Source: TPA_inf: Saccharomyces
Lineage: Eukaryota
Reading direction: 5' to 3'
Length of the DNA stretch: 64,000 bases
NCBI GenBank assembly: GCA_000146045.2
Contig: BK006948.2
Location: forward strand, 128,001-192,000
The notes below the pieces were generated by a model. The model searched no databases. It was not told the DNA's origin and saw nothing but the letters and a program-made list of their open reading frames with translations. Made by a program: the position numbers and the translations under genes. Below, piece after piece: positions 31,173-37,331 of the stretch. How positions within the stretch are numbered: position 1 is the first letter of the stretch; the number at the start of each line of letters is the position of its first letter.

Positions 31173-31445
31173 ATGAATGACGATGAAGATAGAGCCCAAC
31201 TGAAGGCTAGGCTGTGGATCCGTGTGGAAGAACGATTACAACAGGTGTTGTCCTCTGAGGACATAAAATACACACCGAGATTCATCAACTCATTGCTGGA
31301 GTTAGCATATCTACAATTGGGTGAAATGGGGAGCGATTTGCAGGCATTTGCTCGGCATGCCGGTAGAGGTGTGGTCAATAAGAGCGACCTCATGCTATAC
31401 CTGAGAAAGCAACCTGACCTACAGGAAAGAGTTACTCAAGAATAA
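31173..31445 (+). CDS. MHF1: histone-fold protein of the MHF (CENP-S-like) complex, 90 aa
   Basis: 90 aa with histone-fold character. The position between DUF1 and ADH1 matches YOL086W-A. Confidence 0.8.
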   Translation: MNDDEDRAQLKARLWIRVEERLQQVLSSEDIKYTPRFINSLLELAYLQLGEMGSDLQAFARHAGRGVVNKSDLMLYLRKQPDLQERVTQE

Positions 31446-31547: not shown

Positions 31548-32594
31548 TTATTTAGAAGTGTCAACAACGTATCTACCAACGATTTGACCCTTTTCCATCT
31601 TTTCGTAAATTTCTGGCAAGGTAGACAAGCCGACAACCTTGATTGGAGACTTGACCAAACCTCTGGCGAAGAAGTCCAAAGCTTCTCTGGTGTCAGCTCT
31701 GTTACCGACGTAAGAACCAACAATAGAGATGGACTTGACGACTTGGTTGAAGACATCAGAACAACACTTGGCACCAGCTGGCATACCGACCAAAACGGTG
31801 GTACCGTTAGCTCTAACGTATCTGGTAGAAGCTTCAATAGCGGCTTCGGAAACGGAAACGTTGATGACACCGTGAGCACCACCGTCAGTGGCCTTTAGAA
31901 CAGCACCGACAATGTCCTTTTCCTTAGTGAAGTCAATGAAGACTTCACCACCGATGGATCTGAATAATTCTTCCTTACCTTCACCACCGTCAATACCCAA
32001 GACTCTGTAACCCATAGCCTTGGCGTATTGAACAGCCAAAGAACCTAGACCACCAGCAGCACCGGAGATAGCAACCCAGTGACCGGCCATCAAGTTAGCA
32101 GACTTCAAAGCCTTGTAGACGGTGATACCAGCACACAAGATGGGGGCGACTTGGGCCAAGTCGGTACCTTGAGGAATGTGAGCGGCTTGAACAGCGTCAG
32201 CGGTAGCGTATTGTTGGAAAGAACCGTCGTGGGTGTAACCAGACAAGTCAGCGTGAGGACAGTTGGATTCGTTACCCAATTCACAGTATTCACAGGCCAT
32301 ACAAGAACCGTTCAACCATTTGATACCGGCGTAGTCACCGATCTTCCAGCCCTTAACGTTTTCACCCATGCCGACAACGACACCGGCACCTTCGTGACCA
32401 CCGACTAATGGTAGCTTAACTGGCAATGGCCAGTCACCGTGCCAAGCGTGCAAGTCAGTGTGACAGACACCAGAGTATTTAACGTTGATCAACAATTCGT
32501 TGGCCTTTGGCTTTGGAACTGGAATATCTTTGTATTCCAACTTACCGTGGGATTCGTAGAAGATAACACCTTTTTGAGTTTCTGGGATAGACAT
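31548..32594 (-). CDS. ADH1: alcohol dehydrogenase I (zinc MDR family), 348 aa
   Basis: [30 protein letters not shown]..., zinc ligands GHEGAGVVV, and NAD fold [14 protein letters not shown]. The codon usage is strongly biased. The classic ADH1 promoter and terminator sequences flank it. Confidence 0.98.
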
Positions 32595-32714
32595 TGTATA
32601 TGAGATAGTTGATTGTATGCTTGGTATAGCTTGAAATATTGTGCAGAAAAAGAAACAAGGAAGAAAGGGAACGAGAACAATGACGAGGAAACAAAAGATT
32701 AATAATTGCAGGTC

Positions 32715-32722
32715 TATTTATA
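32715..32722 (-). promoter_or_regulatory. ADH1: ADH1 TATA box (TATAAATA on the minus strand), about -125
   Basis: ctatttata on the plus strand corresponds to TATAAATAG on the gene strand, followed by a poly(dT) run. This matches the classic ADH1 core promoter. Confidence 0.8.
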
Positions 32723-33245
32723 CTTGATAGCAAGACAGCAAACTTTTTTTTATTTCAAATTCAAGTAACTGGAAGGAAGGCCGTATACCGTTGCTCATTA
32801 GAGAGTAGTGTGCGTGAATGAAGGAAGGAAAAAGTTTCGTGTGCTTCGAGATACCCCTCATCAGCTCTGGAACAACGACATCTGTTGGTGCTGTCTTTGT
32901 CGTTAATTTTTTCCTTTAGTGTCTTCCATCATTTTTTTGTCATTGCGGATATGGTGAGACAACAACGGGGGAGAGAGAAAAGAAAAAAAAAGAAAAGAAG
33001 TTGCATGCGCCTATTATTACTTCAATAGATGGCAAATGGAAAAAGGGTAGTGAAACTTCGATATGATGATGGCTATCAAGTCTAGGGCTACAGTATTAGT
33101 TCGTTATGTACCACCATCAATGAGGCAGTGTAATTGGTGTAGTCTTGTTTAGCCCATTATGTCTTGTCTGGTATCTGTTCTATTGTATATCTCCCCTCCG
33201 CCACCTACATGTTAGGGAGACCAACGAAGGTATTATAGGAATCCC

Positions 33246-33280
33246 GATGTATGGGTTTGGTTGCCAGAAAAGAGGAAGTC
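33246..33280 (-). promoter_or_regulatory. ADH1: ADH1 UAS: Rap1 (UASrpg-like) site plus adjacent Gcr1 CT-box
   Basis: gatgtatgggttt is the reverse complement of AAACCCATACATC, a Rap1-type ACCCATACAT site, at about -652..-664 from the ATG. A GGAAG/CTTCC CT-box lies about 15 bp away. Confidence 0.6.
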
Positions 33281-33589
33281 CATATTGTACACCCGGAAAC
33301 AACAAAAGGATATCCGAAATATTCCACGGTTTAGAAAAAAATCGGAAAAGAGCGCGGAGGGGTGTTACCCCCCTTCTCTACTAGCATTGGACTTTAATTA
33401 ATATATGTGCATAGGAGAAGTGTAAAGTTCCCTTCCATATTGTAACATAATAAAGTGCACACCCAAATGAATTGAAAGCGTACTCAAACAGACAACCATT
33501 TCCAGTGTTGTATGTACCTGTCTATTTATACTGGTAGCAACCCTATTGCTGTTTCCTCTTCAAAGTACTCTAGCGGTTATGCGCGTCTC

Positions 33590-33600
33590 ACCTTCAAGGT
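33590..33600. promoter_or_regulatory. Zap1 zinc-responsive element (ACCTTCAAGGT, perfect 11-bp ZRE palindrome) about 1 kb upstream of ADH1
   Basis: It is an exact match to the ZRE consensus ACCTTNAAGGT. Its position upstream of the ADH1 UAS fits the Zap1-driven ZRR1 intergenic transcript that represses ADH1 in zinc deficiency. Confidence 0.7.
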
Positions 33601-34355
33601 CATGGTCGCTCTATTGTTCGCACCACCGGCAAACTCGCGTCTCGCAAGTCTTGGCTCATTCTTCTAGTATACTCATGTTGCAAATGCACTCAGGTTCTTT
33701 CGGCAACTTAAATAATGACACCAGTTGTCGTGGTCGTCATCATCGCAACCCCAACCGGCATTCTTATTGCTTCTCCAATCTCGCCCCTTAGCGCAGGGTA
33801 AACCTTGGAAAATGCAGGCGCAAAAAACTCCGCCGGGCACAGCCTCACGCCCAGCGTTATCGCCGGGCCGGCAAGAGCGCGGGTCCGCCACAGAGTCAGC
33901 ATGATTGTGCAATTGCGTAAACTCGTTTTTTCGGCGCCGCAAAGCCAAATACATCATATCAACACTTTTCACTTTATTTTTCGTTCGACCCTTATATTTG
34001 TCTTTTGCCTTCATGCTCCTTGATTTCCTATTTCATTTACCATCATTTCTTCGATCCCCCTCATCGTGATGTAGTCAACCCTCTTCTTGTTTTAATACGT
34101 TAATCTCCCTGAAATACTTTAAATACGTATGTGCGCAAGTGCTTAGAAACATGTATACATCGAGTATATATATATGTATGTATTCGCTTGATGTGGGTTC
34201 TTGGTTATCTATCCTTTATTGTATTTACTATGTCTACTACGTCTACGATATTTAGCAAATAGTACTCCTTTTTGTTATACTATTATATTAAGTTATATTT
34301 GAGCACATCATATTCAAAGCAGCGAAAGGTTAGATATTTATAGCACATACGTACT

Positions 34356-37331
34356 ATGGCTGACAGTTCTTCGACTTCGGCGTTCATTTCAACCCTGATT
34401 ATCTACGGTCTTACCGCCGTCGTGTTTGTCTGGCTCTTTTTGCTATTGCGGCCCAAGAATAGAAGAGTATACGAGCCACGGTCTCTTAAGGACATTCAGA
34501 CTATTCCGGAGGAAGAGAGAACGGAACCAGTTCCTGAAGGCTACTTCGGGTGGGTTGAATATCTACTCTCGAAACCGCACTCGTTTCTCATCCAGCACAC
34601 AAGCGTGGACGGCTATTTTCTGTTAAGATATATCGGTATCGTGGGTTCACTTTCGTTTGTGGGCTGTTTGCTTCTTTTACCGATATTGCTTCCCGTGAAC
34701 GCTACCAACGGTAACAACCTTCAAGGCTTTGAACTGCTATCATTTTCAAATGTTACCAACAAGAACAGGTTTTACGCGCACGTTTTCCTCTCGTGGATCT
34801 TTTTTGGCCTGTTCACCTATGTCATCTACAAGGAGCTGTATTACTACGTCGTGTTTAGACATGCTATGCAGACAACACCACTCTATGACGGACTGCTGTC
34901 TTCTAGGACGGTTATCGTCACAGAATTGCACAAGAGCATCGCTCAAGAGGGGGAGATGCAAATGCGTTTCCCCAAGGCTTCCAATGTGGCCTTCGCGTAT
35001 GATCTCTCAGACTTGCAAGAATTGTGTAAAGAAAGAGCTAAGAACGCTGCGAAGTACGAAGCTGCGTTGAATAAGGTTCTAAACAAGTGCGTGAAAATGA
35101 CCCGAAACAAGACCCAAAAGCAACTTGACAAGTTGTACAATAACGGTACCAAGCCAAAGGACGATTTAGAGACATACGTGCCACATAAAAAGCGCCCTAA
35201 ACATCGTTTGGGAAAATTGCCGCTTTGTCTAGGCGGCAAAAAAGTTAATACGTTGTCTTATTCTAGTAAAAGGATTGGGGAATTGAACGAAGAGATTCAT
35301 GAAAAACAAGCCGATTGGGCCAGTAATGATAGGCAACCTGCCTGCTTTATCCAGTTCGAGACTCAATTGGAAGCGCAAAGATGCTACCAATCTGTGGAAG
35401 CAATCTTGGGTAAGAAAAATTTTGGTAAGCGTCTTATTGGCTACTCGCCAGAAGACGTTAACTGGGGCAGCATGCGTCTCAGTTCAAAGGAGAGACACTC
35501 CAGGAGAGCTGTGGCAAATACAATCATGGTGTTATTGATTATCTTTTGGGCTTTCCCCGTTGCTGTGGTTGGTATCATCTCCAACGTCAATTTCCTTACC
35601 GATAAAGTTCCCTTCTTACGTTTCATCAACAACATGCCCACCTTCCTGATGGGTGTCATTACTGGTTTGTTGCCTACTATTGCGTTGGTCGTTTTGATGT
35701 CTCTAGTGCCACCTTTTATCGTAATGTTGGGGAAACTTAGTGGTTGCGTCACTAGGCAAGAAACGGATCTATACTCCCAAGCATGGTATTACGCTTTCGC
35801 TGTGATTCAAATCTTTTTAGTTGTCACCGCTACCTCTTCTGCATCTTCCACCGTTGACTCGATTATTGACAGACCAAGATCCGCCATGACACTATTGGCA
35901 AATAACTTGCCAAAGGCATCCAACTTTTATATCATGTACTTCATATTGAAAGGTTTAACTGGCCCCACATGGACGATCTTGCAGGCAGTTAACTTGCTGC
36001 TAAGTAAAGTCCTAGGTAGAGTGTTGGATTCTACCCCAAGGCAAAAATGGAACCGCTACAATACTTTGGCCACGCCGCGCATGGGCATTGTTTACCCAGG
36101 CATTGAAATTCTGGTTTGCATTTATATCTGTTACTCGATTATCGCCCCTATACTGCTATTTTTCAGTACCGTAATGTTGACGCTACTTTATGTGGCGTAT
36201 TTGTACAATTTAAACTACGTGTTTGGCTTCTCCTTCGATTTAAAGGGGCGCAATTATCCAAGAGCACTTTTCCAGATTTTTGTTGGAATTTACTTGAGTG
36301 AAGTATGTCTGCTTGGACTGTTTATCATGGCAAAAACCTGGGGTCCTTTGGTCCTGGAAGTGTTTTGGATCGTGGTCACTGCCCTAGCTCATATATATAT
36401 GAAGAGGAAATTCATACCGCTATTCGACGCAGTTCCTTTAAGCGCCATCAGACATGCAAGAGGTGAGCCCGGCTATTCCTATCCTACATCGGACTTGGGT
36501 CTCCAGGAAATCAAGGACATTGCAGATGAAATGAAGGGCAAATACGAACAAGACAATACACACGGGATTTTGACGCCCGTGACCAAGGATGATTTGAAAA
36601 AGGCCAATCTGATACCAGATAACGATGGCAGCTCAGAGAACGGTACTCCTAGTAACCCCTTTGAGTCTGGTTCTGAACGTGCCTCTCTCTCTGGATCGAA
36701 CGCAGAGAGTGACTCGATCAAGAAATTAAATGATACTGTTATCAAAAAATCAAGCACTCTCTCCTCCTCTACCAAGGACAACAACGAATCTACTTTTGTT
36801 CCAGAGGGTGAAAAGTTTCGCAAGTTTCACTACAGCGATGTTGAGGCATTGAGAAATAAGCGCCCTTATGATGAGGATGATCATAGTAAACATGGACCTG
36901 AAGGTGCCGTGCCAGTAAACGCTGACGCGGGAGTTATTTACAGTGATCCGGCAGCTGTCATGAAAGAGCCTCAGGCATTTCCTCCGGATGTTTTGGAAAC
37001 CAATACTTGGACAAGAAGAATTCTACAATTCTTCAACCCAAGAAGGTCGTATCCTTTCGACAGTGTCAGGATGAGATTCCCACTTGTTTTCAACACCAGC
37101 ATCGAATACGATGAAGAATATTTGAGCTCTGCTTATACCGATCCATGTGTCAGAGAGAAAGATCCCATTGTGTGGTGCTGTAAGGATCCGTTAGGAGTTT
37201 CAAAACAGCAAATTCAAGAGGCTAGGTCTAATGGCTTAGATGTAAGAGATGATTTCACAAGGTACGATGAAAAAGGAAAAGTCATATTCACTTACAACCC
37301 TCCTGATTATGAACCTGAGGCTAAAAAATGA
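34356..37331 (+). CDS. PHM7: CSC1/OSCA/TMEM63-family multi-pass membrane protein (putative calcium-permeable channel), 991 aa
   Basis: N-terminal TM helix, then a cytosolic domain and a C-terminal RSN1_7TM-like multi-TM block. 991 aa equals PHM7 (YOL084W). Confidence 0.88.
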   Translation: MADSSSTSAFISTLIIYGLTAVVFVWLFLLLRPKNRRVYEPRSLKDIQTIPEEERTEPVPEGYFGWVEYLLSKPHSFLIQHTSVDGYFLLRYIGIVGSLSFVGCLLLLPILLPVNATNGNNLQGFELLSFSNVTNKNRFYAHVFLSWIFFGLFTYVIYKELYYYVVFRHAMQTTPLYDGLLSSRTVIVTELHKSIAQEGEMQMRFPKASNVAFAYDLSDLQELCKERAKNAAKYEAALNKVLNKCVKMTRNKTQKQLDKLYNNGTKPKDDLETYVPHKKRPKHRLGKLPLCLGGKKVNTLSYSSKRIGELNEEIHEKQADWASNDRQPACFIQFETQLEAQRCYQSVEAILGKKNFGKRLIGYSPEDVNWGSMRLSSKERHSRRAVANTIMVLLIIFWAFPVAVVGIISNVNFLTDKVPFLRFINNMPTFLMGVITGLLPTIALVVLMSLVPPFIVMLGKLSGCVTRQETDLYSQAWYYAFAVIQIFLVVTATSSASSTVDSIIDRPRSAMTLLANNLPKASNFYIMYFILKGLTGPTWTILQAVNLLLSKVLGRVLDSTPRQKWNRYNTLATPRMGIVYPGIEILVCIYICYSIIAPILLFFSTVMLTLLYVAYLYNLNYVFGFSFDLKGRNYPRALFQIFVGIYLSEVCLLGLFIMAKTWGPLVLEVFWIVVTALAHIYMKRKFIPLFDAVPLSAIRHARGEPGYSYPTSDLGLQEIKDIADEMKGKYEQDNTHGILTPVTKDDLKKANLIPDNDGSSENGTPSNPFESGSERASLSGSNAESDSIKKLNDTVIKKSSTLSSSTKDNNESTFVPEGEKFRKFHYSDVEALRNKRPYDEDDHSKHGPEGAVPVNADAGVIYSDPAAVMKEPQAFPPDVLETNTWTRRILQFFNPRRSYPFDSVRMRFPLVFNTSIEYDEEYLSSAYTDPCVREKDPIVWCCKDPLGVSKQQIQEARSNGLDVRDDFTRYDEKGKVIFTYNPPDYEPEAKK

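Follow-up and report, generated by a model that had tools for sequence, protein, structure and literature searches.

A consensus zinc-responsive element (ZRE) for Zap1, situated between ADH1 and PHM7 on Saccharomyces cerevisiae chromosome XV, and an ADH1-facing TATA box 60 bp away from it very probably constitute the promoter from which Zap1 drives the intergenic RNA ZRR1 and so represses ADH1 in low zinc. The present analysis established the motif and that it is unique, the direction in which the TATA box faces, the absence of coding capacity, where the Rap1 and Gcr1 sites are located and the conservation across the genus; that ZRR1 exists, that it depends on Zap1 and that it acts by interference are statements of the literature. 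The ZRR1/ADH1 pair serves as a textbook example both of 'zinc sparing' and of a gene repressed through non-coding transcription. The feature at positions 33590-33600 of the window (that is, the whole 64-kb stretch of DNA that was analysed) is the published ZRR1 promoter and, consequently, already known. Its rediscovery from raw sequence indicates that the motif reading behind the original prediction was reliable, and adds no new biology. The additions made here are modest: the ZRE and the TATA box are conserved throughout the genus, the ZRE is absent from three outgroups, and the ZRE of ZRR1 is the one listed for PHM7.

In 2006, Bird, Gordon, Eide and Winge (EMBO J 25:5726) reportedly described a Zap1-induced intergenic RNA, ZRR1, upstream of S. 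cerevisiae ADH1, and they are said to have shown the DNA-binding domain of Zap1 bound to the ADH1-upstream ZRE. Because 33590-33600 is the sole candidate in the region, we infer it to be the site of Bird et al. 2006. The locus is the same as the one analysed here, with nothing differing between the two: PHM7 and MHF1-like flanks, a ZRE upstream of the Rap1/Gcr1 upstream activating sequence (UAS) and, leading into the ADH1 promoter, an oriented TATA box with non-coding sequence behind it. Zap1-activated transcription of ZRR1 through the ADH1 promoter is described in a series of papers (PMC2535606, PMC8860598, PMC3335523, PMC3614515 and PMC3852481), all of which cite Bird et al. 2006. ZRR1 has been listed among Zap1 targets as an ADH1-upstream unit (Wu et al. 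2008, PMC2535606), was seen to go down while ADH1 went up when Zap1 levels dropped (PMC8860598), and was found to be fairly stable, yet partly recovered among cryptic unstable transcripts (PMC3335523). Concerning the mode of repression, ZRR1 transcription was reported to dislodge Rap1 and Gcr1 (PMC3852481), and modelling preferred nucleosome occlusion over factor dislodgement (PMC3614515). The ZRR1 regulatory-RNA arrangement recognised in the original prediction is supported, both by the sequence features that it led one to expect, all of which were found, and by these independent papers on Zap1-activated ZRR1.

The intergenic region, its ZRE and the promoter elements toward ADH1

The window carries the gene order DUF1-MHF1-ADH1-PHM7-ATG34 of S. 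cerevisiae chromosome XV, which recurred in the orthologous loci of named Saccharomyces genomes. Between the divergently transcribed ADH1 and PHM7 lies an intergenic region of 1761 bp (32595-34355). The product of the ADH1 ORF, 348 aa in length, matched PDB entry 4w6z 'Alcohol dehydrogenase 1' with E = 8.3e-237 and contained the Pfam domains ADH_N and ADH_zinc_N. The features of the locus are as follows:

31173-31445, plus strand: CENP-S-fold (MHF1-like) protein of 90 aa, neighbour of ADH1
31548-32594, minus strand: ADH1 coding sequence, zinc-dependent alcohol dehydrogenase and target of repression (PDB 4w6z and Pfam)
32715-32722, minus strand: ADH1 TATA box TATAAATA at -128 (motif scan)
32730-33480, minus strand: putative body of the non-coding ZRR1 transcript, ends approximate, placed by the yeast TATA-to-start spacing
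33247-33259, minus strand: Rap1 site AAACCCATACATC, which fits the consensus RMACCCANNCAYY (motif scan)
33274-33278, minus strand: Gcr1 CT-box CTTCC (motif scan)
33523-33530, minus strand: ADH1-facing TATAAATA box, 60 bp from the ZRE, putative core promoter of ZRR1
33589-33602, minus strand: extended conserved block TGACCTTGAAGGTG of 14 nt, made up of the ZRE and flanking bases (k-mer test)
33590-33600, no strand assigned: consensus Zap1 ZRE ACCTTCAAGGT, an exact match to ACCTTNAAGGT
34356-37331, plus strand: coding sequence of PHM7, the divergent neighbour, 991 aa (Pfam RSN1_7TM, PHM7_cyt and PHM7_ext)

An exact ZRE had been predicted about 1 kb upstream of ADH1, and 33590-33600, at -996 to -1006 from the ADH1 ATG (32594) and at -766 from the PHM7 ATG, is indeed the single exact match to ACCTTNAAGGT in the 64-kb window. 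This 11-bp motif is the ZRE consensus as given by Wu et al. 2008 (PMC2535606), and the RSAT score of the sequence at 33590-33600, 11.7, equals the value stated for the consensus in that paper. The site had also been called a perfect palindrome, which is correct for its two 5-bp arms, these being fully complementary, and incorrect for the C/G centre, the reverse complement, i.e. the reading in the direction of ADH1, being ACCTTGAAGGT. Within the 1761-bp intergenic region it was both the sole site at up to two mismatches from the consensus and the sole occurrence of ACC-N5-GGT.

After dinucleotide shuffling of the window (n = 100), exact matches to ACCTTNAAGGT occurred at a mean of 0.08, with at least one in 7/100 shuffles, so that the window-wide count on its own is mildly improbable and only suggestive. 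ZRE-like sites with up to two mismatches numbered 35 in the window against 35 expected, without enrichment, and those with one or two mismatches outside 33590-33600 were set aside on account of this chance-level frequency. One such site with a single mismatch, ACCTTCAAGGC, was seen at 34717-34727 within the PHM7 coding sequence, approximately 360 bp past its ATG, one-mismatch sites being at chance level.

TATA boxes were searched with the pattern TATAWAWR in the ADH1-PHM7 intergenic region, and from the ZRE to the ADH1 ATG two minus-strand matches were obtained, at 33523-33530 and 32715-32722. Along the minus strand the order is therefore the ZRE, TATAAATA after 60 bp, the Gcr1 and Rap1 sites, the ADH1 TATA box and the ATG, in other words an activator site and a core promoter that face the target and lie upstream of the target's own activator sites. 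The distal TATA box would, as judged from the sequence, be the core promoter of ZRR1. A Rap1/Gcr1 UAS at 33246-33280, with the ZRE distal to it, had formed part of the original prediction, and the sites located by motif scan (Rap1 at 33247-33259, CTTCC at 33274-33278) agree with it.

It was further observed that both minus-strand TATA boxes are embedded in an identical 13-mer, AGTATAAATAGAC (33520-33532 and 32712-32724); in most sister species both copies read ...ATACAC instead, and the likeness may be due to chance. As in a repeat search the likeness around the two boxes stopped at 13 nt, a duplication of the promoter is without evidence.

From 33590 to 32595, minus-strand ATG ORFs reached at most 47 aa, and an Rfam scan of 32400-34500 returned no family even at E = 1. 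With ORFs this short, no Rfam family and a sequence that, outside the conserved motifs, is rich in indels across species, the stretch is devoid of coding potential and does not correspond to a known structured RNA. The non-coding character of a minus-strand unit running from 33590 to about 32600, as had been proposed, is thus upheld; its end, however, is not readable from the sequence, the counts of minus-strand Nrd1/Nab3 and poly(A)-like motifs being too sparse for placing the 3' end of ZRR1. A start just downstream of 33590, which had likewise been proposed, needs refining, since transcription would have to begin past the TATA box, roughly within 33400-33480.

The more distal sequence of the 1.5-kb ADH1 promoter reportedly gives rise to a longer RNA and lowers expression in late growth; the literature citing Ruohonen's ADH1 promoter truncations provided no detail on an upstream transcript. 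The 1.5-kb 'full-length' ADH1 promoter of expression vectors presumably spans about -1500 to -1, and over such a span it would carry the zinc-responsive silencer.

Conservation within Saccharomyces and in outgroups

Orthologous loci were retrieved via PHM7 and ATG34 homologues from S. kudriavzevii (L001), S. eubayanus (L002), S. uvarum (L005) and S. arboricola (L008), together with a second copy of the S. eubayanus locus from S. pastorianus (L003) and one from a metagenome scaffold (L004), and with a locus from a close relative of S. cerevisiae (L006; PHM7 nucleotide identity 88.6%). Each retrieved Saccharomyces locus contained exactly one ACCTTNAAGGT, always in the form of ACCTTCAAGGT including the central C and always between ADH1 and PHM7, at a distance of 771-1086 bp from the ADH1 ATG (771-868 bp in S. 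uvarum and S. eubayanus) and of 612-861 bp from the PHM7 ATG.

The Saccharomyces ADH1-PHM7 intergenic regions ranged from 1382 to 1936 bp in length, and their alignment was gap-rich. Conservation was assessed with an alignment-free test, in which S. cerevisiae k-mers were looked up in all five other genomes of a six-genome comparison (S. cerevisiae, S. kudriavzevii, S. arboricola, S. eubayanus, S. uvarum and L006). Across the 1761 bp this test yielded five blocks of at least 11 nt common to the six genomes, among which TGACCTTGAAGGTG was the sole fully conserved block distal to -420. The remaining four are ADH1-proximal and lie at -419, -296, -134 and -31, the one at -134 being the TATA box of ADH1, which sits within the fully conserved 14-nt block ATCAAGTATAAATA. 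As to the sequence of two of these proximal blocks, that at -419 to -409 reads TAGGCGCATGC (33003-33013) and that at -296 to -283 reads CACCAACAGATGTC (32877-32890) and holds an E-box-like CAGATG.

The identity of the ZRE in six Saccharomyces genomes amid poorly conserved DNA points to purifying selection, and by literature evidence the element lies upstream of Zap1-dependent units induced in low zinc (PHM7 and ZRR1). It is its position and conservation that place the ZRE beyond chance. We regard the 11-mer at 33590-33600 as a putative high-affinity Zap1 binding site, with the same high confidence that is attached jointly to the explanation of which it forms part.

In the alignment the distal TATA box appeared as GTATAA(A/G)TA in 6/6 genomes, 55-75 bp from the ZRE, S. 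eubayanus and S. uvarum differing from the others by one base; its 10-mer match is confounded by the identical TATA sequence of ADH1, and its conservation consequently rests on the alignment. The Rap1 site reads AACCCA(T/C)(A/G)CA(T/C)CGG in the six species, and the surroundings of the Gcr1 box are conserved as G(C/A)CTTCC. On the PHM7 side of the ZRE, conserved non-coding blocks were noticed at approximately 33836-33906 and 33786-33800, with the minus-strand sequence ...CTGACTC...GGCCCGGCG(A/T)TAACGCT..GCGTG(A/G)GGCTG and, in addition, a CCCCTTAGCGCAGGG element; these blocks are probably upstream elements of PHM7.

Outside the genus, the divergent ADH-PHM7 pair is kept in N. glabratus (L011) and in a relative (L010), and in N. 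dairenensis (L012) another gene adjoins PHM7. A ZRE with up to two mismatches was absent at the comparable position in all three, and no ACC-N5-GGT occurred in the PHM7-upstream intergenic sequence of L011 (3698-5000), L010 (886-2173) or L012 (3446-5000). Judging by this small sample of three outgroups, the ZRE appears to have been gained only in the genus Saccharomyces.

Shared use of the ZRE by PHM7 and alternative readings

YOL084W/PHM7 is itself a Zap1 target, with a 9.7-fold induction in low zinc (Wu et al. 2008 Table 1, PMC2535606). In the same study, PHM7 was 2.1-fold higher in wild type than in the zap1 deletion, constitutive Zap1 raised it 2.5- and 2.3-fold, and induction was found in experiments E1, E2 and E3 (Wu et al. 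2008, PMC2535606); induction of PHM7 along with the zinc regulon was also described elsewhere (PMC3128112). A single ZRE is listed for PHM7, at -766, with the sequence ACCTTGAAGGT and a score of 11.7 (Wu et al. 2008 Table 1, PMC2535606). Since 34356 minus 766 equals 33590, and since the listed sequence is the reverse complement, the PHM7 ZRE and the ZRR1 ZRE are one and the same site, a point absent from the original prediction. This ZRE was assigned to PHM7 by scanning for motifs computationally rather than by mutagenesis.

The nearest plus-strand TATA-like run, at 34165-34176, is approximately 570 bp from the ZRE, as against 60 bp for the TATA box of ZRR1, and 766 bp (or approximately 570 bp to that run) is far for a yeast upstream element. 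Given its listing for PHM7, the element is probably common to two divergent Zap1-activated units and bidirectional, and the sharing of the site by PHM7 and ZRR1 bears on the interpretation of ZRE mutants. For the broader proposal that Zap1, by a single binding event at one consensus ZRE, switches in both directions, turning PHM7 on and silencing ADH1 through ZRR1, and that this switch is an innovation of the genus Saccharomyces, we see the chances as evenly balanced.

The listing of the site as PHM7 ZRE (Wu et al. 2008, PMC2535606) and the induction of PHM7 by Zap1 could also be taken to mean that the ZRE is a mere upstream activating element of PHM7, and that whatever transcription heads toward ADH1 is a by-product without regulatory consequence. 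We consider this improbable, as on the ADH1 side the conserved TATA box is 60 bp from the ZRE, versus some 570 bp to the plus-strand TATA-like run, and ZRR1-dependent repression of ADH1 is described in several papers (PMC8860598, PMC2535606, PMC3614515, PMC3335523 and PMC3852481); moreover, the roles of the ZRE for PHM7 and for ZRR1 are mutually compatible. Far less credit still is due to the view that the 11-mer occurs by chance and is functionless. The exact matches in 7/100 shuffles and the chance-level frequency of sites with one or two mismatches speak for it, and they are outweighed by a 14-nt block that is identical in six species amid heavily diverged intergenic DNA, as one of five such, and by the fact that a Zap1 target site has been published at this very position (Wu et al. 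2008, PMC2535606).

Just as unlikely, in our estimation, is a reading of the ZRE as part of a protein-coding unit, be it the minus-strand ORF of 113 aa at 33673-34014 or a short ORF downstream of the ZRE. The 113-aa ATG ORF does adjoin the ZRE, and in S. eubayanus-type loci gene callers annotated ORFs of 176-178 aa at the equivalent position. Nevertheless, the 113-aa ORF contains no Pfam domain, and tblastn against sister species gave weak and frame-split matches, so that it does not represent a conserved coding sequence, and on these two grounds it was rejected as a coding explanation. Being on the PHM7 side of the ZRE, it cannot be driven by the ZRE/TATA pair, and past the TATA box the longest minus-strand ATG ORF has 47 aa. 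The Zap1-driven transcription of ZRR1 toward ADH1 is the reading that we prefer.

Proposed mechanism and comparison with known systems

In zinc-limited cells Zap1 would, according to the literature and to the identity of the motif, bind to 33590-33600 and activate the minus-strand TATA box at 33523-33530, a step that the spacing, orientation and conservation of the box suggest. RNA polymerase II would then start approximately 40-120 nt past the TATA box, at about 33400-33480, and, as the literature has it, ZRR1 transcription would traverse the Gcr1/Rap1 UAS (at about -660) and enter the ADH1 core promoter. Such traversal is reported to remove the activators or to lay nucleosomes over the UAS and by either route to switch ADH1 off. 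In the published interpretation, zinc would be spared in this way, ADH1 being among the most abundant zinc proteins of the cell. Zap1 would most probably also use the palindromic ZRE to induce PHM7 on the other strand, as that gene's upstream element; this shared use and the exact ends of the transcript are what we infer from the arrangement.

ZRR2, a Zap1-induced transcription through the ADH3 promoter (PMC8860598, PMC2535606), is reportedly akin to ZRR1 in that the promoter of a zinc alcohol dehydrogenase gene is crossed by transcription that Zap1 induces. ADH3 loci were retrieved with the Adh3 protein (L013 from S. cerevisiae, L014 and L015), and the 3 kb upstream of ADH3 contained no ZRE within one mismatch of the consensus. 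A degenerate GCCCATAGGGT was found there at -755 (L013, 2246-2256), followed 68 bp later by TATAAATG (2314-2321), and a second species preserves both, S. eubayanus having weaker versions of them. This pair may be a candidate ZRR2 promoter, with the same ZRE-then-TATA layout as that of ZRR1; the ADH1 ZRE, in contrast to the degenerate site of ADH3, matches the full consensus.

The SRG1-SER3 system (Martens, Laprade and Winston 2004) resembles ZRR1 in having a regulated upstream non-coding RNA that crosses the promoter and represses in cis, a comparison drawn in PMC3335523. It differs in its signal, which is serine and not Zap1/zinc, and in its geometry, for SRG1 starts much nearer to its target, whereas ZRR1 would start approximately 900 bp upstream and have a distal UAS to cross. 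RTC4 and GIS2 (Taggart et al. 2017; PMC6162548) are similar to ADH1 inasmuch as Zap1 activates an upstream promoter and the output of the downstream gene falls; there, however, the long-leader or bicistronic RNA contains the ORF and is poorly translated, whereas what has been reported for ADH1 is promoter interference.
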